IMG/VR virus record: IMGVR_UViG_3300021958_000031
Length of the DNA stretch: 55,744 bases
Strand: one strand, 5' to 3'
Source: an uncultured virus (IMG/VR IMGVR_UViG_3300021958_000031)
Lineage: Duplodnaviria > Heunggongvirae > Uroviricota > Caudoviricetes
Positions 1 to 49,843 of this stretch are shown in pieces; positions within the stretch are counted from its first letter, which is position 1; each line of letters begins with the position of its first letter. Under the pieces are notes generated by a model that had not been told where the DNA came from, made no database searches, and saw only the letters and a list, made by a program, of their open reading frames with translations. A program made the translations under genes and the position numbers.

Positions 1-532
1 TATTTACTTCTATACCCACTGAATGTGTATGCATATGCTGTGATCCGTTTTTACCTAAGTGCCAACCATAACCACCTTCTGGGAATGCTTGAACCATTAC
101 ACCGTCGTATGTATCATCATTACCTTTAATTGAAGGACCACCTAATACAAATTCTGTTGCAACTGCCCCTCTACTATCTCTGCCCCAATGATCTACAGTT
201 CGGTAAGGGTTATGCCATCCTGCAGTATGATGTAAGAAAACATATTCTTTTTTTGTTGGTCCTGATTTATATTCTCCTATTGGTAAAAAATGCTTATTGA
301 TAACTAATCCGTTTTCTGTTGTGTAAGCTTTTTCTGAATCATCAGTAGTAGCAAGGCCCATAGCGTCCCAAGTGGCAGGACCAACAATACCATCAGCAAT
401 AAGACCGTTAGCGGCTTGCCATTTTTTAACTGCAGCTTCAGTTCCTGACCCAAAAATACCGTCTGCTCCGATACCCAAGAATTCTTGTAATTCTTTAACT
501 TCATTTCCTTTTTTTCCTTTCTTTATTATCAT
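1..532 (-). CDS. Endolysin: N-terminal peptidoglycan-binding domain plus Amidase_2-type N-acetylmuramoyl-L-alanine amidase (3' end runs off the window)
   Basis: Not in the ORF track. Hand translation from ATG at 532: MIIKKGKKGNEVKELQEFLGIGADGIFGSGTEAAVKKWQAANGLIADGIVGPATW (PG_binding_1 DGIFG/DGIVG repeats), then VFLHHTAG...YGWHLG...SVGIEVN (Zn-amidase motifs). Confidence 0.9.
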   Translation of the reverse strand, partial: MIIKKGKKGNEVKELQEFLGIGADGIFGSGTEAAVKKWQAANGLIADGIVGPATWDAMGLATTDDSEKAYTTENGLVINKHFLPIGEYKSGPTKKEYVFLHHTAGWHNPYRTVDHWGRDSRGAVATEFVLGGPSIKGNDDTYDGVMVQAFPEGGYGWHLGKNGSQHMHTHSVGIEVN

Positions 533-533
533 G

Positions 534-1151
534 TTATTCTGTATTTTTATCAGATGCGTATTTCACACCCATAATTGTACCTACTATAGAGAATGCATTC
601 GTAAGAAGTATACCAAACATATTAGACCAAGTTGATCCGATAATTTGCGTATCATATCCAGAGACCATTGCAATAGCGTACATTATAGTGGTAAGAACCC
701 CTACTCCAATTATTACAAATAAAGCAACTCTTACAATAGTTCCAATAAGTTCAAATTGTGATTTCTTTTGCATAAGATCCAAATCAGTTAAAGCAGTCTC
801 CATTGCTTTTTCTGCATCGGATTTAGCAATAATGGCTTGCTGTTCTGCGTCTTTGGCATCTTGCATAGCCCTTTCAGTTTCATCTAAAGCTCTGGATAAT
901 TGTTTATTGACTCTCTCATTTTCTTTAGCAGCTAATTCAAGTTCTTTATTTTGGGCTTGCACCTTTTTTGTTACCTGTAATCTTTTTCTACGAGAGGTTG
1001 TATCTCTCTCCTTACAGTCTTCAATGTATTTTATTAATTGAACATCATCTTTATCCGGATCTATAATCTTTATAATGTTACCTTCAAGAAAAATTTTCTT
1101 TTCTTTAGCTAACTTTAGTAAAGTATCTCTTGTATCTTTATTAAGCTTCAT
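534..1151 (-). CDS. Membrane protein: soluble N-terminal domain, coiled coil, two C-terminal TM helices (holin/antiholin or signalling-output candidate)
   Basis: 205 aa. Heptad-rich middle, hydrophobic segments IVRVALFVIIGVGVLTTIMYAIAMV and MFGILLTNAFSIVGTIMGV. Abuts the endolysin gene. Confidence 0.6.
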   Translation of the reverse strand: MKLNKDTRDTLLKLAKEKKIFLEGNIIKIIDPDKDDVQLIKYIEDCKERDTTSRRKRLQVTKKVQAQNKELELAAKENERVNKQLSRALDETERAMQDAKDAEQQAIIAKSDAEKAMETALTDLDLMQKKSQFELIGTIVRVALFVIIGVGVLTTIMYAIAMVSGYDTQIIGSTWSNMFGILLTNAFSIVGTIMGVKYASDKNTE

Positions 1152-1159
1152 TGTTTTCT

Positions 1160-1666
1160 TTAATGTATATGGCCTTCTATTTTATTATGTAGTTTAATAT
1201 TTTCCATTCTTAAATCAAATAACTCCCTTTGTTGATCTTCTATTTTCTTTTCAAGATCTTCTCTATACATTTTACTAACATCTTTGGTTTTCTTATCGCT
1301 GTTTTTAGATTCTATTTTTTGAGTTATTCTTCTAATATTACTTAAACCGCTAATTGCTATCACAACCCATCCCCAATTCATAGGGTTTGTGCTAAGACCT
1401 TCGCTTAGAAAATGTATAATCACAAATAATATAGCTATACTACCATATAGATACGAAAACACTCTTCTCCGTTCTAAACTACTGTAAACAACCGAGTGTA
1501 ATGTACCTAATCCGATTAAAGAGCTGATTACAGCCACATACCATAAGTTTGGAAAGAACTCCGCGCTTAAAACAAATGGTGCAAATAAAAACCATATTAA
1601 TCCTTGCAAAACCTCAGTTGGTTCTGAATCATGATATGTTAATATATGTACTAATTTCTTTATCAT
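1160..1666 (-). CDS. Four-TM membrane protein with charged coiled-coil C-terminus (holin-like candidate)
   Basis: 168 aa, four hydrophobic stretches then a highly charged tail. Start overlaps the receiver gene stop. Confidence 0.55.
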   Translation of the reverse strand: MIKKLVHILTYHDSEPTEVLQGLIWFLFAPFVLSAEFFPNLWYVAVISSLIGLGTLHSVVYSSLERRRVFSYLYGSIAILFVIIHFLSEGLSTNPMNWGWVVIAISGLSNIRRITQKIESKNSDKKTKDVSKMYREDLEKKIEDQQRELFDLRMENIKLHNKIEGHIH

Positions 1667-2112
1667 TATTTATACACTTTAAATTTGGCAGTCTTGTTTT
1701 TGTAACCATCGTAATCTTTTCTGAATTCTTCTAGGCGAGGTTCAATGTCATCTGATTTAATAATCCAAAATTGAGCCCCAGCTGCCTTAGCTTTTTCAAT
1801 CTCTTGATTATCGTCTGATGATGAAATGATACCAATAACACAGCCGTTACCATATTCATGATTGATTTTATCTATCATCTCAATTCCATTAAAACTGGAT
1901 CCAATAATGTTAAGATCTACAAATACACATTCTGGCTTTTCGTGATTTTGGTCATCAGGAAACCATTCCTTAAACTTTTTATCTGCTTCATCACTAGAGT
2001 TTAATGCTTCAAGTGAAAGTGTAATATCTAAAATACTACATGCATCTTCAAAGACGAGGTGGAATAAATCTTCATCATCAATGAGCATAATTGAGTCAAT
2101 CATTTTATTCAT
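1666..2112 (-). CDS. Single-domain response regulator (CheY-like receiver)
   Basis: IMLIDDED acidic pocket, VFVDLNI phospho-acceptor Asp, IISSS, AKAAGAQFWIIKS with the conserved Lys. No output domain. Confidence 0.92.
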   Translation of the reverse strand: MNKMIDSIMLIDDEDLFHLVFEDACSILDITLSLEALNSSDEADKKFKEWFPDDQNHEKPECVFVDLNIIGSSFNGIEMIDKINHEYGNGCVIGIISSSDDNQEIEKAKAAGAQFWIIKSDDIEPRLEEFRKDYDGYKNKTAKFKVYK

Positions 2113-2113
2113 T

Positions 2114-3364
2114 TTATTTTATCTTTATTTTTAATTTTGTTCCTGGTTTTGCTTTTTCGGAAGTAATACTAAAACCATGTTCTCTTAATATCGCTATACA
2201 AATATTTAATCCTAATCCTGAGCCACTCTCGCTTTGCCCCCTCTTTCTTGTATAAGGTTTAGATAATTCCATAAACTCGGATTGACTCATCCCTCTACCG
2301 TTATCTTGTACACATAAAATAGAATCTCCTTCCATATAAATCATTACAGTTTTTGTTCCGCTATCGTTATATTTTAAACCATTCCTAATAAGATTATCTA
2401 TAGCTGTACAAAAAAGAGGTTCGTTAACTTCTATCTCTGGTAATGTATCTATCAATACTTGCTTACCGTATGATGTTGATGCTAAGTAATTTTTTAATAT
2501 ATCTTTTAGATTATGTGATTTTTTATCTAATTGTGTATCTTTTTTAACTAGGTTAGTAAATTCTTTAACGCCTGCATATACTTTTTGTGTATGACGTAAC
2601 CCTTCTTCTATCATTCTAATTGGTGCACTTATTTTTAATTCCTTTATTTGATCTTCGCTTAATCTTCGTTTCATAGAACTTAAACCACGAGGTATATAAG
2701 TATTAATTCCACTATGCATATCGTGTCTAAGTATTTTGGCTGCATGCTCTAGATAAGAATTCTTTTGATTAAGTATATCCTCGGCTTCATGCTGTGTAGT
2801 AACATCAGTTGCAACTTTTAGTATTTTAGTATATTTACCAGTTTTATTCTTAATAGGTGTATAGTTACCATATAACCATCTTTTAGAACCATCCTTAGCA
2901 ACTCGTTCAAATTTTCCTGTAATAGACTCACCTCTTCTTAATGTTTCCCAAAATTCCAAATACTCTTTACTTTTAGCATATTCAGGAGTTACCATTCTAC
3001 TGTGAGGCTTTGTTATTACGTTACTCTCGGCACATCCCATAATATCACAAAAATTGTCATTGGCTGATAAAATATAACCATCCATAGTTAATGTCACTAC
3101 TAAATTTGATTTACTGATACCTTCAAGCTGGGCATTTATGTTTTCTTCCTTTAAGTTAATACTACCAATAAACTCGGTAACAAACATAAAGAAAGGCGGC
3201 ATAAACCCAACCACGCAAGCATAACCAAATTGTGCTAATTCTATACTGTTTTCACATAAACCAAAAACAATACAAGATTGAACTAAAAAGAATGACAACA
3301 TAATCACACCAGCAATACCTAATGCTATCTTTGATTTTATCGATATGCCTTTAAGAGCTTTCAA
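2114..3364 (-). CDS. Membrane-bound PAS sensor histidine kinase
   Basis: Two N-terminal TMs, PAS/PAC (ILSANDNF...FWETL...KDGSKRW...ATDVT), H-box ILRHDMHS, N-box DNLIRNGLKY, G1 VQDNGRGM, G2 GSGLGLNI. TTG start directly after the upstream stop. Confidence 0.95.
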   Translation of the reverse strand: MKALKGISIKSKIALGIAGVIMLSFFLVQSCIVFGLCENSIELAQFGYACVVGFMPPFFMFVTEFIGSINLKEENINAQLEGISKSNLVVTLTMDGYILSANDNFCDIMGCAESNVITKPHSRMVTPEYAKSKEYLEFWETLRRGESITGKFERVAKDGSKRWLYGNYTPIKNKTGKYTKILKVATDVTTQHEAEDILNQKNSYLEHAAKILRHDMHSGINTYIPRGLSSMKRRLSEDQIKELKISAPIRMIEEGLRHTQKVYAGVKEFTNLVKKDTQLDKKSHNLKDILKNYLASTSYGKQVLIDTLPEIEVNEPLFCTAIDNLIRNGLKYNDSGTKTVMIYMEGDSILCVQDNGRGMSQSEFMELSKPYTRKRGQSESGSGLGLNICIAILREHGFSITSEKAKPGTKLKIKIK

Positions 3365-3553
3365 TTATAGTTCTGATTTTTTTAATCCTAGTTTTTCAAA
3401 CAACCATTTTGATGGACAGAATTTAGTCCATACACCTATGTTTAACATTGCGATTACAAAACCAACAATATACCAATTATCGAGAGCCAATCCTGTTGCT
3501 AATACAACTGACATAAGCAGGTAGACCGCTCTTACTGATGTCCACTTTTTCAT
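3365..3553 (-). CDS. DUF2892/YgaP-like small two-TM protein
   Basis: 62 aa, R followed by two TMs and the GxxxFCP...LG motif typical of DUF2892. Confidence 0.7.
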   Translation of the reverse strand: MKKWTSVRAVYLLMSVVLATGLALDNWYIVGFVIAMLNIGVWTKFCPSKWLFEKLGLKKSEL

Positions 3554-3566
3554 ATGATTACTTTTT

Positions 3567-3686
3567 TTAATACATTGAGATTGTAATAAAAAAAGCTACC
3601 TTTAAACGAATCCATACTCGTTTTAAAAAAGGTAGCTTTTTAAATTCCTCGAGCTCAAATATATCTTCCGGCTCTTTTATTTCCAT
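3567..3686 (-). CDS. Small 39-aa ORF (possible leader peptide) MEIKEPEDIFELEEFKKLPFLKRVWIRLKVAFFITISMY
   Basis: Hand translation. Lies between the late-promoter motif (3705-3713) and the DUF2892 gene. Confidence 0.55.
   Translation of the reverse strand: MEIKEPEDIFELEEFKKLPFLKRVWIRLKVAFFITISMY
3590..3641 (-). terminator. Long hairpin followed by a U-tract, inside the small ORF (terminator/attenuator candidate)
   Basis: Perfect 14-bp inverted repeat aaaaagctaccttt (3590-3603) / aaaggtagcttttt (3628-3641), plus inner aaacga/tcgttt stem. Confidence 0.5.
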
Positions 3687-3704
3687 TATGGCTACATATT
3701 TGAT

Positions 3705-3713
3705 TTATATATT
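3705..3713 (-). promoter_or_regulatory. Putative late promoter AATATATAA upstream of the signalling/lysis operon
   Basis: The same motif precedes tube, sheath, portal, protease and other virion genes. Confidence 0.7.
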
Positions 3714-3716
3714 AGA

Positions 3717-4418
3717 TTAACGGCCATTTCTTCTTGCGTCTTCTTCTTCATAATATTTGATTAGATCATCTACTACAGGATCTCTATGATTTTCAAATAA
3801 TGTAACAGAACAAACATTTTTAATCTTTTTACCGAGGTTGTATAAAAACTTAAATCCTGAATCTCTTCTGTTTTTTAAATCTACTTGGCCATCATCTCCA
3901 CATACAATCATTTTAGATCTTAAACCTATTCTTGTGGCTATCATTTCCATTTGAGTCATTGTAACATTTTGAGCTTCATCTACTATAACACAGCTATCTA
4001 AAAAGGTTCTACCTCTCATAAATGCAACAGGTACAATTTCTATCTTACCTTCTTTTATAAAAGGATCTACCTTTTCTTTACCATAAAGCAAATACATGTT
4101 TTGATAAATTGGTTGAACCCACGGATCCATTTTTTGATGAAGATCACCAGGTAAGAATCCAATTTCTTCCTTTGAAACTGTTGGTCTAGTGATTATAATT
4201 TTTTCATAGTGTCTTCTGAAAAGTCCATCTAACGCTACTTGGCAAGCTAATAGTGTTTTACCACTTCCGGCTTTACCTGCTAATACTGTTACTGTATTAT
4301 TTAAAATTTGCTCTTTAGCTAATTTCTGTTCTTCATTTAAAGAAATATTAAATTTAATTGGGTTTTTGACAATTCTTTTTTGACGGAATACATCGTCATC
4401 GTATGTTCTAGCTGGCAT
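3717..4418 (-). CDS. phoH: PhoH-like ATPase
   Basis: GKAGSGKT, IIITRP, EIGFLPG, FMRGRTF, DEAQN, GDDGQVD motifs. Confidence 0.95.
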   Translation of the reverse strand: MPARTYDDDVFRQKRIVKNPIKFNISLNEEQKLAKEQILNNTVTVLAGKAGSGKTLLACQVALDGLFRRHYEKIIITRPTVSKEEIGFLPGDLHQKMDPWVQPIYQNMYLLYGKEKVDPFIKEGKIEIVPVAFMRGRTFLDSCVIVDEAQNVTMTQMEMIATRIGLRSKMIVCGDDGQVDLKNRRDSGFKFLYNLGKKIKNVCSVTLFENHRDPVVDDLIKYYEEEDARRNGR

Positions 4419-4450
4419 TTGCGAATATTTTTTTAACCTAAAGAATATTC

Positions 4451-5203
4451 TTAAGGTTTTGGTTGGTAATGTTTTCGCTGTGTTTCGCTCGGCGGTGTTA
4501 CTGGAGAATCTAAGTTTTGTTTTAAAACTTTTTCAACATGATGGACATTAGTCTTACTTAATCTGCTTATGTCAGTTTTTTTTTCAAAATCCTCTACAGC
4601 AGTTGGAGGTAATACATCATCTTCAAAGTTTTCTATATTTAGTGATTCTTCAGCAACCTTTCCCAAAGGTTTAACTGGTTCATTAATTACTTCGGCAACA
4701 TTATCCGAAGGTTCTTTTATATCTGTATTTAATTCGGCAAATACCTCCTCGGTAACAGTTTCTTCAGGTCTTATATAATCAGTAAGAGATTTAATAAAAC
4801 CTAATGCAACTAGAGGTAATACTGCCCCACTTACAACAGATAAAATTCTTTTTTGGAAGATAGGCTCCTCTTCTTCTAATCCGAAAAGTTCTATCCACCC
4901 CATATAGTCTTCTAAATTAACAAATGCATGGTATGAATTTGCCATCATTTGAAATGCGGTAAGAAGTAAAAATAAACCCCATACCATTGTCTTGTTTGTT
5001 TTGTCTAAAATAATTATTGCAGCAAGAGAAGCAGCTGCACCTAATTCAAATCCTATAGCTAAAGACCATGACATTAAACCTGAGTGGCTAAGGTCAAAAA
5101 ATGCTACTGAATTAATCATTGATATTGTAGCTACTAAAAAATATAAACTAACAAATATTCCTATTATACTTAAATGTACTACTTTTTCTTTTAATGTTTT
5201 CAT
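4451..5203 (-). CDS. Hypothetical multi-pass membrane protein with acidic disordered tail
   Basis: About four hydrophobic helices in the N-terminal 140 aa. Confidence 0.6.
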   Translation of the reverse strand: MKTLKEKVVHLSIIGIFVSLYFLVATISMINSVAFFDLSHSGLMSWSLAIGFELGAAASLAAIIILDKTNKTMVWGLFLLLTAFQMMANSYHAFVNLEDYMGWIELFGLEEEEPIFQKRILSVVSGAVLPLVALGFIKSLTDYIRPEETVTEEVFAELNTDIKEPSDNVAEVINEPVKPLGKVAEESLNIENFEDDVLPPTAVEDFEKKTDISRLSKTNVHHVEKVLKQNLDSPVTPPSETQRKHYQPKP

Positions 5204-5212
5204 AATGTTATT

Positions 5213-5800
5213 TTATATTACACCAGTAACAAATCCACTACTGTTACCGCACCCTGAATCACCACCATTTTTAGCAATTTTAGATTCAAGTATTGTAGCT
5301 ACCCATAAACAAGGTATACCAAATACCTCTGCAGTTCCTGTTGGAAATGCACCTGTTGGGCCATACCCTGTTGGTTCTCCGGTATTTCCACCTGGGCATT
5401 CAGTTAATAATATTTCTGCTGAAATTCCCCCAGGACTAGTTGCCTTTGTACACGCAGCTGATAAACATATTCTAATTAAACCTTCATTATGTATAACTCC
5501 TGATGTATCTGTGAATTGTAAAATATCTATAAGGAATCCTTTTGAACCTGATGGAATATCAGGCCACCAAAAATTTGCAACTACACACTCCAGCTCATTT
5601 GTTAATTGTATTTGAATGTCACAAAAGTTATTCAGATTAAGAGGCAAATCATCAGCACCAAATAATTGAATATCAATACACGCAGTTGTACCTTGCATTA
5701 TGTATTTAATACAATCTACTTGAGCAATTATTCTACCACAATACGTTAATGCACATTGCGGATCACTTGGTGTAGGTACTCCTGGAATAATGTTAGACAT
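5213..5800 (-). CDS. Cys-rich hypothetical protein, possibly a virion beta-sandwich (BppU-N-like)
   Basis: Probable start MSNIIPG at 5800. 11 Cys, QG-T...I.L..D..P.NL pattern reminiscent of baseplate upper-protein Ig domains. Confidence 0.45.
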   Translation of the reverse strand: MSNIIPGVPTPSDPQCALTYCGRIIAQVDCIKYIMQGTTACIDIQLFGADDLPLNLNNFCDIQIQLTNELECVVANFWWPDIPSGSKGFLIDILQFTDTSGVIHNEGLIRICLSAACTKATSPGGISAEILLTECPGGNTGEPTGYGPTGAFPTGTAEVFGIPCLWVATILESKIAKNGGDSGCGNSSGFVTGVI

Positions 5801-6029
5801 TTTTAATTTTTCTTTTTTCTTGTAAGAGTTTTTCACATCTCACTTCTTTTAAGATGATGCAGTATTCATATAGTTCATCAATCTCAAAATTCTTAATAGT
5901 CCAATCCAAATCTTTTACTGTTCCAATCTCAGCCCATTCTCTAAATTCAGCGCTATCTTTGAACATCTTAATAAAGTTAGATGGTCTTATCAAGTTTGAA
6001 TAGTGTTTTTCTAATGCTTCTATACTCAT
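5793..6029 (-). CDS. Hypothetical protein
   Basis: 78-aa ORF, packed in the operon. Confidence 0.55.
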   Translation of the reverse strand: MSIEALEKHYSNLIRPSNFIKMFKDSAEFREWAEIGTVKDLDWTIKNFEIDELYEYCIILKEVRCEKLLQEKRKIKNV

Positions 6030-6646: not shown

Positions 6647-6664
6647 TTGATTTCTAATCTTTTT

Positions 6665-7414
6665 TTATATATTCTCCTTTAATGGATACTTTTCATGAAA
6701 AGCTTTTACTAACGATAAGAATTTCTTCCCATAGAATGATATATCATCAAATGTCATTTCAAAAACCTGTGGAAATGCGTCAGATTCATTACTTATCCAT
6801 ATTTCTCCGCCTTCAGGTTTTACACCATTCATTTCCCAATAAGCTAATGAATATGCAGCAATTTGCATTTTATAATTTTCAATCCAGTCTTCTCTTTTAG
6901 GTTTCTTTGAAGATTTAAAATCTAAGACGACTAGATGAGCTTTCTTATTCTCATAAATAATATCAACTCTACCTGCATAACCACCCATCTGAGGTGAATG
7001 TAATGTATCTTCTATAGACACCACCTTAGCTATCCTGTCAAAGCATTCATTATTATAAAAATTAAAAAAGAGTTTCCTACCTACATTAGTCTCATCTTCA
7101 GTAAAACCGTTTTCTTCAACGAAAGGCCCTATGAGAGTTTGTGCCTCCATTAATCTTTCTCTAACAGTTTCCTTTTCAGATCCTAAAAAGTATTCGCAAA
7201 ACTGATGCATAACAGTTCCTCGATTGGCAGAGAACTTAGAAATTCTATCTGCTTCTTCATCTCCTACTCTCTTTCTCCATTTATCAATTCCTGATTTATC
7301 AGTCATTGCCCCTAAGATAGTGGTTACTGATGGATATTTTTTACCCTCTCCTATATTATAGTATCTTTTACCATTTATAGTTTCTGTTGTTGCTAGTGAT
7401 TCTGCTGTTGCCAT
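6665..7414 (-). CDS. PD-(D/E)XK exonuclease (Cas4-like phage family)
   Basis: YPSVTTIL, RGTVMH, YAGRVD, LDFKSS, QIAAY motifs. Confidence 0.88.
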   Translation of the reverse strand: MATAESLATTETINGKRYYNIGEGKKYPSVTTILGAMTDKSGIDKWRKRVGDEEADRISKFSANRGTVMHQFCEYFLGSEKETVRERLMEAQTLIGPFVEENGFTEDETNVGRKLFFNFYNNECFDRIAKVVSIEDTLHSPQMGGYAGRVDIIYENKKAHLVVLDFKSSKKPKREDWIENYKMQIAAYSLAYWEMNGVKPEGGEIWISNESDAFPQVFEMTFDDISFYGKKFLSLVKAFHEKYPLKENI

Positions 7415-8691: not shown

Positions 8692-9333
8692 TTAGGCTTC
8701 AGCAAACAGTTTCATCCCTTCGAGCTGTTTTTTAACTATTTTCCTCCCTCTAAATATTCGGTTCTTTACTGTTTGTAAATTTATTCCCTTTTCGGACTCT
8801 TTCATTATATCTAATATATCAGAATAAGATTTATGATTTAAGAATCGTTCTACCATAAATCTTTTATACATTGGAGGTAACGCATTTATTGCCTCATGTG
8901 TTAATCTAACCTGTTCGTCTAATATTGTTTGTTCATCTTCCCAATCAGATTCAGTTTTAGGTAAATGTAAACCATCTTTCATAGAAGGCATTGAAGATTC
9001 CATTGGTGGCTCAACACCAGCATCAGTAAATACGTTCATACTCACTTTCTTATTTCTAAACCTGATCCAACCTATACATTCATTATATGCAATACGATAT
9101 GCCCACGTTGTAATTTGGTAATCCTCGTTGTATTGATCTATTTTTAAATACACAGTTGTTAAAGTCGTTGATACAATGTCATTAGCAATTGTAGGATCCT
9201 TTACAATATTATTTACATAAGACCATAATCCTGGTCTCATCTTATGATAAAGTTCATTGTAGGTACTTTCCTTTCGTGTCTTTTTAAATTCAATCGCTAA
9301 TTCCTTGTAGGTTTTCTTTTTTGTTTTACTCAT
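8692..9333 (-). CDS. ECF-like RNA polymerase sigma factor
   Basis: Region 2 (ANDIVS...IDQY...TTWAYRIAYNECI) and region 4 (AINALPPMYK...SYSDI...TVKNRIFRGRK). Confidence 0.88.
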   Translation of the reverse strand: MSKTKKKTYKELAIEFKKTRKESTYNELYHKMRPGLWSYVNNIVKDPTIANDIVSTTLTTVYLKIDQYNEDYQITTWAYRIAYNECIGWIRFRNKKVSMNVFTDAGVEPPMESSMPSMKDGLHLPKTESDWEDEQTILDEQVRLTHEAINALPPMYKRFMVERFLNHKSYSDILDIMKESEKGINLQTVKNRIFRGRKIVKKQLEGMKLFAEA

Positions 9334-11149: not shown

Positions 11150-11166
11150 AACAAAATTTAATTTGT

Positions 11167-12075
11167 TTATATATTCCTAAAGATTGCATCAGATATCCAT
11201 TGGTGTAAAAGATCATCATGAGGCTGAGGTTCAAATTTAGAATCACCTTTAAATACAACATCATTACTTTGAAGCATTTCATCTTCTAATTGTTTTAAAC
11301 CGTCTAATGCTTTGCCGTTTGGATCAATTAAAAACTCTCTCATTTCTGGATATGACTGAGGATTAAATGATTTCATTAACATTTCACTCACAAGATCAAA
11401 GTGTCTTTCATATAAATGTAATGAATGTGCAATATGAGTATATGTACCTAATTCTAATTCAGGGTAATATTTACGGAGGTGTTCTAACATCTGCATTTGT
11501 AATAAACAAAAGAATGCAACATCAGTAGGTGTACCTAAGATAAGATCATTAGACCTCATATCTACAGTAAAGTTAAGTTTATTATCTCTTATTTGAAATA
11601 TGCCGTTAAGAGTACAAACAAAATCTTTATTACCATTCCATTGATGTGAAGGTTTATTAAAATGTAAAATGGCTTGTCTTGAGTCTTTATCTTGAATTAA
11701 AGAATCTAATGCCCATCGGTATTGATTTCTACCATCTTCTAATTGTTCGGTAAAGATAAGATTACCGTATGCAGAATTAACTGTACCGTCTTTATTTTTA
11801 ATTTGATCCCAGAATTTTGCATAAGGGGTAATAAAGTCAGCATCATTACGACCTGTGAAATACCAAACTAATTCTGCTGCAATATATTTAAATTGACTAC
11901 TCCTACGTGAATTTTCATAAAGACAAAAAGTAGGATCTTCTACAACAATAGCTGCATCGGTCATTTCAAATATTTTCATACCTCTTGGTGAAGATACATA
12001 ATTAGGGTTATGTATTGCACTACCTAGAGCATAATTATATGCCTCGGCAAATGTCTCTCCTTTAAATACTCTCAT
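11167..12075 (-). CDS. Thymidylate-synthase-family enzyme, dCMP hydroxymethylase (T4 gp42)-like
   Basis: DSRQA, KDFVCT catalytic Cys, MRSNDLILGTPTD (Asp at the ThyA Asn177 position), SLHLYERHF. Confidence 0.82.
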   Translation of the reverse strand: MRVFKGETFAEAYNYALGSAIHNPNYVSSPRGMKIFEMTDAAIVVEDPTFCLYENSRRSSQFKYIAAELVWYFTGRNDADFITPYAKFWDQIKNKDGTVNSAYGNLIFTEQLEDGRNQYRWALDSLIQDKDSRQAILHFNKPSHQWNGNKDFVCTLNGIFQIRDNKLNFTVDMRSNDLILGTPTDVAFFCLLQMQMLEHLRKYYPELELGTYTHIAHSLHLYERHFDLVSEMLMKSFNPQSYPEMREFLIDPNGKALDGLKQLEDEMLQSNDVVFKGDSKFEPQPHDDLLHQWISDAIFRNI

Positions 12076-19826: not shown

Positions 19827-22800
19827 TTATCCATCTACAACTTCAATTGTAATATCTTGAATTAATCCAGGTAATCGGCTCATTGTAGAATTAAGTTTAC
19901 CAAGTGTGCTATTAAGTCTTACCATTGCACCAGAATCATTACTCTTACCTGTTGATCCACCTGCAGCAGGAGCTCCGCCTTCAGTAGTTGCAGCTTCACC
20001 ACCTCCACTACTTTCTGATAGCAAATCTCGAATATCTTCAACTGCTCTTGTTAAGTCCTTGTATGCTCTTCTGTTTTTGCTAAGTTCACTGGCACCATTA
20101 AATAATCCGGCCATTGCCTCAGCCTTGAAAGGATCAACAGAATTAATAGCCGCAGCAATTTTTTCTAAATCTGTACCTGCTTTAGCTAAACTACCATTGT
20201 CTGCAGCATCTGCTAAATCAGTAATCCAACCTGAGAAATGATTCATAGCAGGTCTCATCATTGCAACGTCTATATAATTCCTTGTAAACGCATCAGCAAT
20301 ACTGTTAAATAATGTACCTATACCTTTTGCTACCTTAGCTGGGTTCTTAACGCTGGCAAATGTAGCTACACCTTTAGCAATACCTGATAGTTCCTTACCT
20401 GCACCTTTTACTGCTTTAATACCTTTTTCTACATTGTTCTCATCCCAAGAAATTAAACCAAATAATGCGGAGTCGGTTGTTTCATTTGAACCGATTGCAG
20501 CAAACGCATCACCAACAAAGGTTAAAGTATTTTTAACTGCATTAGCTAATTTTCCTTTTGGTCTAAAATCAACTTTATCTGCTACCATCTTTTGAAAAGT
20601 TTCTAATCCATCAGCAATGCCTTTCAACTCTTTACCTACGCCCTGTACAGCCTGAACACCTTTTTCTACATTATTCTCATTCCATGTGATTAGACCAAAC
20701 AATGCACTATCTTCGGTTTCATGGCCTGCGACTGCAGCAAATGCATCGCTTATAAATGTTATTGAACCTACAACTGCTTTAGCTAAATCACCTTCTGGAC
20801 TAAAATCAATATTATCTTTTGTAAATCCAATAAATTTAAGTAAACCATCAGCAATTGAATCTAACTCTCTACCAACTCCTTTAACGGAATCAATACCCTC
20901 TGCTACTTTATTCTTTTTAACTCCAAACAGAGAATTCCAGAAACCGCCTGCCTGAACATTACCTTCTCCAGCAACCGCGGCAAATGCAGTACGAATAAAT
21001 CCTATAGTATTTACAATTGCATAACCTAAGGTACCATCTTCATAATTTCCATCACCATCAGGTTCACCAAACTCAATACCTTTGTCTATCATTGTTTGGA
21101 ATTTCATTAAACCATTAGCAATGTCATCTAAGTTTTTCCCAACTCCTCTAACCGAATCAATACCCTCTGCTACTTTATTCTTTTTAATTCCAAATAGAGA
21201 ATTAAAGAATCCACCTGCCTGAACATTACCTTCTCCGGCAACTGCAGCAAACGCCGTTCTAATAAATCCTACAGTATTTGTTATTGCATAACCTAAAGTA
21301 CCTTCTTCATAATTTCCATCACCATCAGGTTCACCAAACTGAGCACCTTTTTCTTGAAGCTTCATAAAGGAGTGAAGTCCTTTTGTAATTTCAGTAAGTG
21401 CATCACCAGACCTCATTACCGATTTAACTCCTCTTTCGGTTGCATTAGGACTAAACGTAGATCCAAACACAAGACCAAATAAACCGCCTGGGTTTGATGG
21501 CTCTCCACCAGCCTGAGCAAAAGCAGCACTAATGGAACCTAATGCAACAGCAAGATCTTCTGAATCTTCTTGCGTAAAGTCAACATCTTTAAACGCTTGT
21601 AAACCTTTTGATAATTCTTGTAATGCTGTTCCTGCTTGCTCATACATTAGAGCGGCACCACCACCTGCAACACTCTGTCCTATTCTACTAAATACATTAC
21701 CAACATTCTTTAAAAACCCTGCCTCAGGTTCTACACCAGAAAATGCTGCAGCAACAGCACCTAATGTAAAGGATAAGTTCTCGGCATCTGTTTTGTTAAA
21801 GTCTACCTTTTTCATTGCTGATAAACCTGGTGCCAATTCTTGTAATGCTAAACCAGCAGCACCATATAAAAGAGGCCCTAATAAAGCAGTACCTGCAGTG
21901 GCAGCAACCGCTATTCCGGCTAACGCCATAATTCCACCTATAGCTACAAGTGTTAATGCTTGAACTCCTACATCTTCTAAAGTGTTGCCCCTAGTCGCAT
22001 CAGCAAACGGAGTATAACCCATACTGAATACTAAAAGACCTAAACCATTTAATGCCATTGCCGCAGCACCAAATATAATGTTTTTCATTCCCATTTTTCC
22101 AACTAAGGCAGCAGCACCACCTATTGCCAATATTGTAGCACCTTGTATAAGAATGTCCCCAATAGAGTTTCCTCTTGTTACAGCTGATAGAGCCAATAGA
22201 CCTAAAGAAAAAGGTAATAATGCTAAACCTACTAATGCAAGACCGAGGGCACCCTTTCTAATTCTCCTAGACGTTTTCTTACCTCCGTAGATAGCAACTG
22301 CACCTGGTACTAATATTAAGGCACCAAGCATACCCCCGATAACAGCAGGTTGGGTTATAATAAATAATGTAGTAAGTGCAAAGGCAGCTAAACCTATACC
22401 AAAGGAAAGAACAGCATCTCCAACTTTATCTAAAGCTCTTGCTCCTCTATAAATCCTTTTAGAAGTTTTCTTACCTCCTATTAATGCCATGACACCACCC
22501 ATTATAGCTATTGAAGCTATTAAGAATGGCATAGCCAACATACCAGGTATAATTAAAAGTGCAGATAAAGCTAATGCTTTAGAGAATTGAAGAATAGCAC
22601 CGCCCATCAGATCTAAGACCTTTACACCTTCCATTGCCTTTTTTGAATCAACATTAGCTAAAGCCTCAAATGAATTAGTTACAAATTCGGTAAATTTAGA
22701 AATAGCCTTTTTTGGTACTAAAGCCCATAACAACATTCCAGTAGCAGTTTTCTTAGCACCTACTCCTAAAAGATTAAGAGTTTCACCAGCACCTGCAACT

Positions 22801-23048
22801 TCCTTTTTACTTTTACCACTTCGAGAAAATATACCTGCCATTGGATTCCTTGAAGTATTTGCTTCAATAGCAGTTAATAAATTAGTTTGTGCAGTTAGTT
22901 GAGCAACTATTTGTTGGTCCAAACCAGCACCACCGCCACCACCACCTGAAGCTGCAATAAGAATATCTAATTTTTCATTAGTCTCCTTTGCAGCAGCCTC
23001 TATTTTTGATAGAGGATCCATTAAATCTTTAAGAGTTACGGCAGCCAT
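19827..23048 (-). CDS. Tape measure protein
   Basis: 1073 aa, Ala/Gly-rich and helical, with a hydrophobic central block and internal repeats. Lies downstream of tube and hub genes. Confidence 0.8.
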   Translation of the reverse strand: MAAVTLKDLMDPLSKIEAAAKETNEKLDILIAASGGGGGGAGLDQQIVAQLTAQTNLLTAIEANTSRNPMAGIFSRSGKSKKEVAGAGETLNLLGVGAKKTATGMLLWALVPKKAISKFTEFVTNSFEALANVDSKKAMEGVKVLDLMGGAILQFSKALALSALLIIPGMLAMPFLIASIAIMGGVMALIGGKKTSKRIYRGARALDKVGDAVLSFGIGLAAFALTTLFIITQPAVIGGMLGALILVPGAVAIYGGKKTSRRIRKGALGLALVGLALLPFSLGLLALSAVTRGNSIGDILIQGATILAIGGAAALVGKMGMKNIIFGAAAMALNGLGLLVFSMGYTPFADATRGNTLEDVGVQALTLVAIGGIMALAGIAVAATAGTALLGPLLYGAAGLALQELAPGLSAMKKVDFNKTDAENLSFTLGAVAAAFSGVEPEAGFLKNVGNVFSRIGQSVAGGGAALMYEQAGTALQELSKGLQAFKDVDFTQEDSEDLAVALGSISAAFAQAGGEPSNPGGLFGLVFGSTFSPNATERGVKSVMRSGDALTEITKGLHSFMKLQEKGAQFGEPDGDGNYEEGTLGYAITNTVGFIRTAFAAVAGEGNVQAGGFFNSLFGIKKNKVAEGIDSVRGVGKNLDDIANGLMKFQTMIDKGIEFGEPDGDGNYEDGTLGYAIVNTIGFIRTAFAAVAGEGNVQAGGFWNSLFGVKKNKVAEGIDSVKGVGRELDSIADGLLKFIGFTKDNIDFSPEGDLAKAVVGSITFISDAFAAVAGHETEDSALFGLITWNENNVEKGVQAVQGVGKELKGIADGLETFQKMVADKVDFRPKGKLANAVKNTLTFVGDAFAAIGSNETTDSALFGLISWDENNVEKGIKAVKGAGKELSGIAKGVATFASVKNPAKVAKGIGTLFNSIADAFTRNYIDVAMMRPAMNHFSGWITDLADAADNGSLAKAGTDLEKIAAAINSVDPFKAEAMAGLFNGASELSKNRRAYKDLTRAVEDIRDLLSESSGGGEAATTEGGAPAAGGSTGKSNDSGAMVRLNSTLGKLNSTMSRLPGLIQDITIEVVDG
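20870..21345 (-). repeat. 267-bp (89-aa) near-identical tandem repeat within the tape measure gene
   Basis: cataatttccatcaccatcaggttcaccaaact at 21041 and 21308. FGEPDGDGNYE.GTLGYAI.NT.GFIRTAFAAVAGEGNVQAGGF occurs twice. Confidence 0.9.
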
Positions 23049-25435: not shown

Positions 25436-25475
25436 ATTATTTTATTTTTTTTATATATTCTCTTTTAGTTTCTTC

Positions 25476-33856: not shown

Positions 33857-33879
33857 ACATTATTTGTTTATATATTCCA

Positions 33880-40881: not shown

Positions 40882-40924
40882 ATCTAGTTATTGATTTTTT
40901 TATATATTCAACTCATATAAGACA

Positions 40925-44601: not shown

Positions 44602-44647
44602 TTTCTACTAGTTATTTGATTTATATATTACAATCTTTGTGGAGTTT

Positions 44648-46297: not shown

Positions 46298-46317
46298 ATT
46301 GTTTTATCTTTTATTGT

Positions 46318-46893
46318 TTATATATTCTTGTAATATAATGCTTGTGCCTCATTTATATTTCCTCCAAAAAAATGATTTTGATTGTTAACGGCACCTATAT
46401 ACCAATCTTCATATCCTAACATTCTTTGTTTTCTTATTCTATCCATTCTATACTGTCTAATAGCATAGGTTATATTATACTTTCTTCCTAATGACTTTTT
46501 TAAATTTTCATAAGTAAATTCGCTTAATCTTGATTGGGCAGCAGGATTACCCGGTGCCTTATTTACTGAAGTAGTTATAACATTTTTAAATGATCTTACT
46601 ATATCAGAGAGAAAAGGTATTCTAGTTTCATAAGGAATATAATGTAAATTTAATCCTAGTTGATGATTATTATCACTCTGCCCTAAACCTAATACTATTG
46701 GAAAGGTATCATAAAAAGTTTCATCTGGTGTAAAATACTCAAAAGAATACATTTTCCCGTTATCTAATATTCCTTTTGCAGTACTACCTATATTGATTAA
46801 ATCTTTGTCTGATTGTTTAGATGCACCACTTCTACCTTTATAATCTGCAAGGTAAATATCTAAGTCTTCTTGAAATGATCCTACTATTGCCAT
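46318..46893 (-). CDS. DNA end protector protein (gp2-like)
   Basis: GKMYSFEY, YDTFP, GLNLHYIP. Adjacent to the gp4-like gene. Confidence 0.75.
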   Translation of the reverse strand: MAIVGSFQEDLDIYLADYKGRSGASKQSDKDLINIGSTAKGILDNGKMYSFEYFTPDETFYDTFPIVLGLGQSDNNHQLGLNLHYIPYETRIPFLSDIVRSFKNVITTSVNKAPGNPAAQSRLSEFTYENLKKSLGRKYNITYAIRQYRMDRIRKQRMLGYEDWYIGAVNNQNHFFGGNINEAQALYYKNI

Positions 46894-47372: not shown

Positions 47373-47738
47373 TTATATCGTATATATACCATCGCTGTCA
47401 GCACTACCATTAATTGAAACAGTACCGGCATATTTTCTAGGGTGTAATTTATTCCATCCTTTTGCAAATCCTCTTTTTGCTATTTCAGTAAAATAAGCAA
47501 ACGCGTTAGTACTTTTTTCTGGATTAAAATTTCTCCAATATTTGAATAAGTCCATATAAGCAGATGCTATACAGTCTTGTCTATCGTCTGGGTTTGCATA
47601 TGATAATTTTCTGGAACATTTATCTGCTAATAACATTAAAAATTCTAATGCCTTTGGTGTAAGTTCGTCTTGTTCTTTAGATATGATAATCTGTTCAAGA
47701 AGATCTCTATTATTTAAGTAATTTCTTTTTCTTGCCAT
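47373..47738 (-). CDS. Late sigma factor (gp55-like)
   Basis: NYLNNRDL, NFNPEKSTNAFAYFTEIA. Confidence 0.9.
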   Translation of the reverse strand: MARKRNYLNNRDLLEQIIISKEQDELTPKALEFLMLLADKCSRKLSYANPDDRQDCIASAYMDLFKYWRNFNPEKSTNAFAYFTEIAKRGFAKGWNKLHPRKYAGTVSINGSADSDGIYTI

Positions 47739-49796: not shown

Positions 49797-49843
49797 ATTA
49801 TAGAATTTGATTTGTTTTATATATTCTAAGATCTTAGAGTTAA

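Follow-up and report, generated by a model that had tools for sequence, protein, structure and literature searches.

The uncultured virus record IMGVR_UViG_3300021958_000031, a stretch of 55,744 nucleotides (nt) referred to below as the window, encodes near its beginning a membrane-anchored PAS histidine kinase, a stand-alone receiver and a 205-amino-acid (aa) membrane protein that ends in a hairpin of two transmembrane (TM) segments, hereafter the hairpin protein. The gene for the latter stops 1 nt before the start of an endolysin gene. We consider it fairly probable that these proteins constitute a late phage phosphorelay that would end on the hairpin protein and modulate hole formation at lysis. 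Judged from the sequences, the phage would thereby probably use a sensed signal to decide when the host is lysed.

In the proposed relay, the membrane-anchored kinase would read a cytoplasmic signal via its PAS domain and autophosphorylate on the H-box histidine H213, after which the phosphate would pass to D66 of the receiver. The phosphorylated receiver would then dock on the N-terminal domain of 60 residues of the hairpin protein, and the continuous helix formed by residues 37-164 of this protein would convey the change to the 2-TM hairpin in the membrane. Acting either as a holin or as an antiholin, the hairpin would promote or delay hole formation and so time the access of the adjacent endolysin to the wall. 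Three other proteins encoded by the same unit, of 39, 62 and 168 aa (the last one at 1160-1666), would be accessory. We infer every biochemical step of this relay, as well as its late timing and the sign of its effect.

A conserved core of kinase, receiver and hairpin protein

Relatives of the module were collected from IMG/VR with the kinase (the best 80 of 631 stretches, 56-79% identity) and with the receiver (120 stretches, 79-93% identity). The resulting 149 loci, 85 of which were unique after removal of duplicates, were compared by tblastn. Matches to the receiver were found in all 149 loci, to the kinase in 148 and to the hairpin protein in 146, followed by the 62-aa ORF (76), the 39-aa ORF (67, with 47-72% identity), the 1160-1666 protein (33), the amidase endolysin (29) and the upstream PhoH (5). 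Clustering of the ORFs from the 85 unique loci gave the same ranking, with 85 loci for the receiver, 83 for the kinase, 79 for the hairpin protein, 45 for the 62-aa ORF, 21 for the 1160-1666 protein and 18 for the amidase. The order kinase-receiver-hairpin is kept in 146 of the 149 loci, and in 79-85 of the 85 unique ones. Since these three clusters are nearly universal among the unique loci, kinase, receiver and hairpin protein are the conserved core of the module.

An earlier inspection of the sequence of the window alone, referred to here as the original prediction, had expected synteny of kinase, receiver, membrane protein and endolysin. This was recovered for the kinase-receiver-hairpin core but not for the position of the endolysin, as the amidase gene lies upstream of the module in its 18 unique loci. 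The order seen in the window, with PhoH upstream and the amidase downstream, was found in none of the fetched loci. It had further been proposed that the phosphorylated receiver binds one of the adjacent membrane proteins. By sequence, an adjacent membrane protein is most likely to be the target of the receiver, and the 534-1151 hairpin protein is the most likely partner. The 1160-1666 protein, present in only 21 of the 85 unique loci, was rejected as partner because it is absent from the other 64. Finally, complete kinase/receiver pairs had been thought to be rare in lytic phages. This does not apply to uncultured phages, with 631 IMG/VR stretches containing a relative of the kinase.

The module spans phages that were binned with four bacterial phyla. 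One complete 65-kb genome (G004; L307-L310) carries it at 27.5-30.4 kb, with 65-88% identity to the window, and has a different virion gene set, including a phrog_13704 structural protein and a long tail-fibre gene. This suggests that the module was transferred between unrelated phage lineages.

The kinase (2114..3364, minus strand; 416 aa, TTG start) matches PAS_3 with 49.0 bits and HATPase_c with 50.1 bits, both of which exceed the Pfam cut-off (26.4 for HATPase_c, PF02518), and it has two N-terminal hydrophobic segments. An alignment of 79 sequences shows conservation of the H-box stretch and of the boxes for ATP binding, and a variable PAS part. The stretches NLIRNGLKYN, DNGRG and GSGLGLN, which we take to be the N, G1 and G2 boxes, are conserved across these sequences, and the stretch HAAKILRHDMHSGINTYI is nearly invariant. 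Pfam HisKA gave no match in the kinase at E≤0.1. Solved kinases, for example 8f71, 9epn and 4kp4, align over kinase residues 200-400, corresponding to the dimerization and histidine phosphotransfer (DHp) plus the catalytic and ATP-binding (CA) domains, and by analogy H213 would be the phosphoacceptor histidine. The nearest solved PAS domains are those of the sensor protein 3ewk (E 5.8e-14) and of the aerotaxis receptors 8dik (E 1.2e-9), and NifL is among the NCBIfam matches. These PAS domains are of the Aer, MmoS and NifL type, which binds flavin; that the kinase senses the redox or energy state is a guess on our part.

The receiver (1666..2112, minus strand) is a single domain of 148 aa with no output domain. 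It scores 30.0 bits against Response_reg, which is marginally under the gathering cut-off of 30.2. Its residues D12, D13, D66, S97-99 and K119 are invariant in 51 sequences, with a mean column identity of 82%, and from the known fold we take them to be the acidic pocket, the phospho-acceptor Asp, the Ser/Thr and the Lys residues of a receiver. The receiver family profile matches the solved response regulator 3ilh with an E-value of 4.7e-7, and NCBIfam NarL matches with 4.9e-6, far under the cut-off of that family. The receiver is also the most conserved module gene: its mean top-residue frequency is 0.87, whereas the kinase reaches 0.71 and the hairpin protein 0.67. It is 69-93% identical across marine and freshwater phages, and its C-terminal 25 residues are conserved too.

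The arrangement of the sensor genes varies in some relatives. Some freshwater-type loci of a second set (L245, L268, L276, L277, L281 and L293) have two tandem kinase genes upstream of one receiver and one hairpin gene, and some kinases are 540-712 aa long with extra N-terminal parts. It seems that the sensors are diversifying here around an unchanging receiver. A 541-aa ORF of no known family lies between the kinase and receiver genes of a 163-kb contig (L070:7245-8867), which is the sole locus of the first set in which the pair is split.

The hairpin protein (534..1151, minus strand), our effector candidate, consists of a 60-aa N-terminal domain, a long helix and a C-terminal 2-TM hairpin. 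In its AlphaFold2 model, with a predicted local distance difference test score (pLDDT) of 88.6, helices cover residues 37-164 and 169-203. The first of these helices runs uninterrupted from the N-terminal domain into TM1 and is followed by a tight turn and TM2. The N-terminal 60 residues are conserved and include the motif LEGN as well as the basic stretch RKKRL-VTKQVQ. The coiled coil, by comparison, is variable, and TM2 hardly varies at all (of 88 columns, 29 are invariant). A Foldseek search of the model against the PDB gave no match with E≤0.001 (best E 4.7), and PADLOC returned only chance-level coiled-coil matches for the module proteins. The hairpin family is narrow and viral. Searched against 1.84 billion proteins, a profile of the hairpin matched only 108 representatives, in each case at the C-terminal end. 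In the genomes of 185,579 species it was found at 4 loci, all of them in metagenome bins, of four phyla, and the Atlas clusters of the hairpin family are 100% viral. A co-fold of the receiver with hairpin-protein residues 1-125 scored 0.29 against a mark of 0.32 and, controls being absent, counts neither way. The intact PAS histidine kinase, the stand-alone receiver and the coiled-coil 2-TM protein that the original prediction had described are all present.

In many relatives the hairpin gene overlaps the next gene. In 35 of the 85 unique loci the latter codes for a soluble protein of 177 aa that belongs to no known family (cluster c5, e.g. L076:7551-8084), and in others for a coiled-coil protein of 111 aa that has a single TM segment at its C-terminus (cluster c46, e.g. 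L075:3003-3338). Both genes are absent from the window, and their products may be further parts of the module.

Hairpin proteins with fused sensor domains

The hairpin protein is matched by 785 longer proteins. Among the 120 of them that were listed, 115 have a PAS-PAS-coiled-coil-hairpin architecture (about 368 aa), 4 have a GAF-coiled-coil-hairpin architecture and 1 is another fusion. Residues 60-201 of the hairpin protein align to a GAF form with 55% identity, so that the sensor replaces just the N-terminal domain. When the two PAS domains of a fused form were aligned to the PAS domain of the window kinase, each showed 41-42% identity (E 4e-27).

The presence of a receiver gene follows the type of hairpin protein. 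Hairpin proteins with the N-terminal domain are encoded just downstream of a receiver gene in 127 of 130 cases; of the other three, two lack such a gene and the third is truncated at the end of its contig. By contrast, a receiver within 5 kb was seen for 0 of 57 fused forms, with contig ends cutting off another two. The simplest reading of these sequences is a single signal path with two wirings, in which a PAS domain would act either directly on the hairpin or via a kinase, a receiver and the N-terminal domain.

Linkage of the module to lysis genes

The endolysin gene next to the module (2..532, minus strand) continues with its 3' part past the window edge. Its product matches PG_binding_1 with 56.3 bits (cut-off 23) and Amidase_2 with 18.5 bits (cut-off 26), the latter score being low because the window edge cuts the gene. 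A full-length relative of 293 aa (L001:4409-5290) reaches 33.6 bits for Amidase_2 against the same cut-off, which bears out the earlier assignment as a PG-binding amidase endolysin. The hairpin protein is thus a 2-TM membrane protein encoded beside an endolysin, as holins and antiholins are.

To score the linkage, a locus was regarded as lysis-linked when an endolysin-type gene, a Phage_holin_4_1 gene or, in the first set only, a spanin-like gene was located at most 3 kb from the module, and as fully flanked when at least 3 kb were available on both sides. A few contigs occur in both sets, and the sets were therefore not summed. In the first set, which consists of two-component loci, 52 of 85 unique loci were lysis-linked, and 19 of the 33 that were fully flanked. 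The corresponding numbers in the second set were 30 of 44 unique and 22 of 27 fully flanked loci for two-component modules, and 51 of 59 unique and 33 of 35 fully flanked loci for the fused forms. For 51 of these 59 loci, an endolysin-type or holin gene was already present within 1.5 kb. By our own estimate, rather than a computed control, chance alone would put only a few genes in a hundred at 3 kb or less from a lysis gene in genomes of 65-300 kb. The module is linked to lysis genes far above chance placement; this linkage is frequent, not universal.

The genes that recur as neighbours of the module encode Phage_holin_4_1 (35.5 bits, cut-off 22.2), an 80-aa 2-TM family, Peptidase_M15_3, Phage_lysozyme (147.9 bits), an endolysin-like family (phrog_3000/33083) and DUF5675. 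Other neighbours combine a lipobox with a C-terminal TM segment and, judged from their sequences and from the architecture of spanins, resemble unimolecular spanins. The partner enzymes thus belong to five families, namely Amidase_2, Peptidase_M15_3, Phage_lysozyme (GH24), phrog_3000/33083 and DUF5675, and they are encoded on either side of the module. Depending on the lineage, the lysis cassette lies upstream or downstream, and some modules are located between DUF5675 and spanin-like genes. In four loci a fused hairpin abuts the endolysin, and the same strand encodes no other 2-TM product within 3.5 kb. Five contigs, three of them at least 99% complete, lack Phage_holin_4_1, and a tblastn search of the 55.7-kb window with the holin candidates and alternative endolysins of the relatives gave no homolog.

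Since the fused forms carry a PAS domain of the kinase type, lack a receiver and are located inside lysis cassettes, they point to a relay that would end at the hairpin and act at lysis.

Alternative explanations

Several observations weigh against a role of the module in lysis. No recognised lysis gene was present within 3 kb in 33 of the 85 unique loci of the first set, and of the loci in the second set that were classed as short or cut only 6 of 14 were lysis-linked (1 of 8 when fully flanked). Two clades hold the module among baseplate or other virion genes, and a PHROG scan of 79 ORFs near six such loci revealed one endolysin, 3.1 kb off. In the complete 65-kb genome G004, a cassette of 2-TM, spanin-like and M15 genes is found at 53.4-54.5 kb, 23 kb from the module. 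The hairpin, 1160-1666 and 39-aa proteins have no match to holin, antiholin or spanin families in Pfam, PHROG, NCBIfam or PADLOC. As relatives carry other holin candidates, the role of the hairpin in lysis could be indirect, and a TM2 that is nearly invariant across phages with differing holin candidates would also fit a conserved host target. Two hairpin proteins with the N-terminal domain are on contigs that have no receiver anywhere (14% and 74% complete), and the T4-type word TATAAAT was found upstream of the kinase in only 14 of 74 relatives. It should also be noted that the loci counted here are related, so that the counts overstate the number of independent events.

As the relatives have canonical holin candidates of the Phage_holin_4_1 and 80-aa 2-TM families, the hairpin protein may not be the holin but a regulator. 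That the coiled-coil hairpin itself represents a new holin class or a dominant antiholin, which a cytoplasmic sensor would trigger directly or via the phosphorelay, is an idea that we put forward only tentatively.

The position amid virion genes in two clades, the 23 kb between module and lysis cassette in a complete genome, the missing holin-family match and a TM2 that stays nearly the same when the neighbouring holin candidates vary by lineage would all suit a relay that controls another membrane function. This function might be superinfection exclusion, an adjustment of ions or energy, or the inhibition of a host membrane protein via TM2, and the vicinity of lysis genes would then result from the clustering of late accessory genes that are directed to the membrane. 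We regard this explanation as rather unlikely, because the fused forms are situated within lysis cassettes (33 of the 35 fully flanked loci), where they are interleaved with holin-like, spanin-like and endolysin genes. In addition, endolysins of five unrelated families show this link, on either side of the module, and in the four loci mentioned above the hairpin is the only 2-TM product beside the endolysin.

Alternatively, the receiver may act on host proteins, such as two-component partners, motility proteins or the envelope machinery, with the hairpin protein serving as an anchor, a phosphate sink or a phosphatase scaffold. The receiver being the most conserved of the module proteins would fit several partners, and the conservation of its C-terminal 25 residues is in line with this. 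However, the receiver and the N-terminal domain of the hairpin protein vanish together in the sensor fusions, and the four bacterial phyla among the bins argue against one host target. Host targets thus appear improbable to us. Lastly, the module could be a passenger cassette that contributes nothing to the phage cycle, its spacing and vicinity to lysis genes being accidents of insertion into a plastic region. This would agree with its differing position between lineages and with an order in the window that none of the fetched loci shares. It is hardly credible, however, as the frames are intact and the catalytic residues invariant in hundreds of contigs of varied sample origin, and as the translational coupling is kept throughout. 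A phosphorelay that would end on the hairpin protein and act at lysis is thus the reading we prefer.

Gene organization and late-promoter-like motif

All genes of the unit are on the minus strand. The late-promoter-like motif AATATATAAA is located at 3704..3713 (minus strand), 18 nt upstream of the 39-aa ORF (3567..3686, minus strand), which is the first gene of the unit and has no Pfam or PHROG family. Upstream of the motif, 3717-4418 on the minus strand encodes a protein with a PHROG match to PhoH. The window contains nine copies of AATATATAAA, all on the coding strand, compared with 1.99 expected and a maximum of 6 in 100 shuffles. Besides the copy of the module, they are located at 6664-6673, 11166-11175, 25450-25459, 33867-33876, 40899-40908, 44620-44629, 46317-46326 and 49816-49825, all on the minus strand. 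These other copies are found directly upstream of the portal, prohead-protease and tail-tube genes, among others, and an extended word of the module motif recurs before the prohead-protease gene at 44620-44629. Looser variants of the motif (ATATAAAAA) precede other genes of the window. A gp55-like late sigma factor is encoded at 47373-47738 (minus strand). The motif copies before structural genes, together with this sigma factor, make it reasonable to regard the motif as a late promoter, and the ten-base word marks a set of likely late promoters in this phage. For the T4 word TATAAATA the window shows no enrichment (9 copies, 14.3 expected), and scans of the window for sigma-70 promoters and terminators gave chance-level results.

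Downstream of the 39-aa ORF, the 62-aa 2-TM protein (3365..3553, minus strand), with two hydrophobic segments, abuts the start of the kinase and is weakly similar to YgaP-like_TM. This family, PF11127, is the former DUF2892. It matches 8 of 18 members of the 62-aa family (best E 2.3e-5), but not the copy of the window at E≤1. Residues C46-P47 are invariant in the 62-aa family, and a weak match of the 62-aa ORF to Phage_holin_2_2 (E 0.019) remains below threshold (15.1 bits, cut-off 25.4). The 62-aa ORF is present in 45 of the 85 unique loci, and in 16 others a 53-aa protein with one TM segment takes its place. Between receiver and hairpin protein, the 168-aa protein (1160..1666, minus strand) with a C-terminal coiled coil represents a lineage-specific insert. 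It has three clear hydrophobic segments and possibly a fourth, and only weak family matches. An Atlas search with this protein returned nothing at 0.9 or above.

The genes from the 39-aa ORF onward are separated by 13, 0, 1, -1, 8 and 1 nt. DNA contigs from public sequencing runs span the hairpin/endolysin and the PhoH/39-aa junctions with no differences (X1 record 2 (366-1208) and X2 record 9 (500-908); X1 record 8, X2 record 16 and X3 record 23). Because these contigs, among them those of X1, which may be the source sample, bridge both junctions, the gene order is not an assembly chimera. These data agree with the originally described late-promoter motif followed by a 39-aa ORF, the motif having nine copies instead of the 1.99 expected, and with the close spacing from the DUF2892-like gene to the endolysin (0, 1, -1, 8 and 1 nt). 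The designation DUF2892-like is appropriate for the family but not for the copy in the window itself, and of the 4-TM protein that had been described the multi-TM character was recovered, with three segments being clear and the fourth only possible.

The phage and its distribution

PHROG matches identify the window as part of a T4-like myovirus. All long ORFs are on the minus strand and the G+C content is about 31%. The genes with PHROG matches include those for replication and recombination (DnaB-like helicase, SbcCD-like nuclease, clamp loader and topoisomerase II), head (portal, prohead protease and major head protein), and tail and packaging (sheath, tube and large terminase), as well as PhoH. 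Megablast of window positions 1-6000 detected no near DNA match among GenBank phages. The receiver has no match among GenBank phages, and the kinase has only partial, weak matches in nine records. For the major head protein, the identity is 60% with its counterpart in an uncultured phage of 462 kb and about 40% with those of the Lak phages. An exact 34-mer of the window was found neither in IMG/VR nor in the JGI metagenome contigs.

Several other genes of the window deserve mention. A 250-aa protein encoded at 4451-5203 (minus strand), between PhoH and the upstream genes, has three hydrophobic segments, a long acidic tail and no family match, and shows no similarity to the coiled-coil protein with several TM segments (cluster c9) that is a frequent neighbour of the module in other phages of the group. 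A 1073-aa ORF at 19827-23048 (minus strand) has no PHROG match and lies in the most G+C-rich stretch of the window (0.39 versus about 0.31). In addition to the gp55-like factor at 47373-47738, a second sigma-factor-like protein (phrog_1740) is encoded at 8692-9333, both on the minus strand.

Viral contigs from marine, estuarine and freshwater samples commonly carry the module family. Runs X3, X4 and X7, which are labelled as soil metagenomes, contain 41-65% of the sampled words of the phage, and the other runs are from estuary, marine and sponge samples. The soil labels reflect either loose labelling or a wide habitat range.

Comparison with known systems

Lysis timing fixes the burst size, which is a main fitness trait of lytic phages. 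To our knowledge, the only well-understood cases of signal-dependent lysis timing are based on direct holin-antiholin contacts. If the proposed mechanism is correct, a phosphorelay, or its PAS/GAF one-component version, that acts on a virus-only hairpin would be a new principle of phage lysis. It would mean that viruses use two-component signalling without transcription, by means of a compact sensor-to-membrane switch. If, in addition, the hairpin itself were a new class of holin or the dominant antiholin, this would be the first viral two-component signalling for a post-translational decision in the virus's own cycle, and a large group of aquatic phages would compute the time of lysis from the internal state of the host, perhaps its redox or energy level. 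Given the wide aquatic occurrence of the family, the module could bear on how aquatic phages couple host mortality to host physiology.

In the literature searched, which left out most subscription journals, we found no published phage kinase-receiver-membrane protein set in lysis cassettes, in agreement with the original prediction, which knew of no description of such a system. The hairpin effector family is undescribed, and none of the systems compared here joins a viral kinase-receiver pair to a membrane hairpin. In its logic the module comes nearest to lysis inhibition in T4 and ICP1 and to the control of cid and lrg by LytSR, and in its wiring to receivers of the CheY type that work through contact. 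In the CheA-CheY-FliM system, a single-domain receiver acts by contact and docks on a short N-terminal segment of its partner. Like CheY, the module receiver stands alone, has all residues of the phospho-site and lacks a DNA-binding domain. The differences are that the module kinase is a class-I PAS kinase rather than a CheA, that the partner is a virus-only 2-TM hairpin, and that docking on it is our proposal. LytSR of Staphylococcus controls the holin/antiholin-like cid and lrg genes by transcription via a DNA-binding regulator. It is likewise a two-component system coupled to holin-like membrane proteins and cell lysis; however, LytSR is cellular and transcriptional, whereas the module is viral, presumably late, and has a receiver without a DNA-binding domain.

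Phage-borne histidine kinases have precedents. According to the available portions of the respective reports, the Clostridioides phage phiCDHM1 carries agr genes (PMC3901668) and pelagiphages have kinases beside curli secretion genes (PMC9599517). As far as these portions describe them, the kinases are outside lysis cassettes and are not accompanied by a paired receiver and a membrane hairpin. Lysis inhibition in ICP1, a phage of Vibrio cholerae (PMC7182436), is another example of regulated lysis timing and extends it beyond the T-even phages. The available part of that report describes no signalling domains, and as far as that part goes there is no sequence relation to the module genes.

The original prediction had referred to the module as a phosphorelay counterpart of T4 lysis inhibition, in which holin T is controlled with the antiholins RI and RIII (PMC11413866, PMC8385771). 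The logic is indeed alike, since in both cases a phage-encoded sensor would set holin triggering according to a signal and the proteins are small, membrane-associated and phage-specific, but the analogy is one of logic only. In the portions of the two reports that were available, T4 lysis inhibition relies on periplasmic binding of RI to T, with no kinase, receiver or phosphorylation. Within the module, by comparison, only the endolysin matches a PHROG lysis family, the signal would be cytoplasmic as judged from the PAS domain, and superinfection sensing is not indicated.

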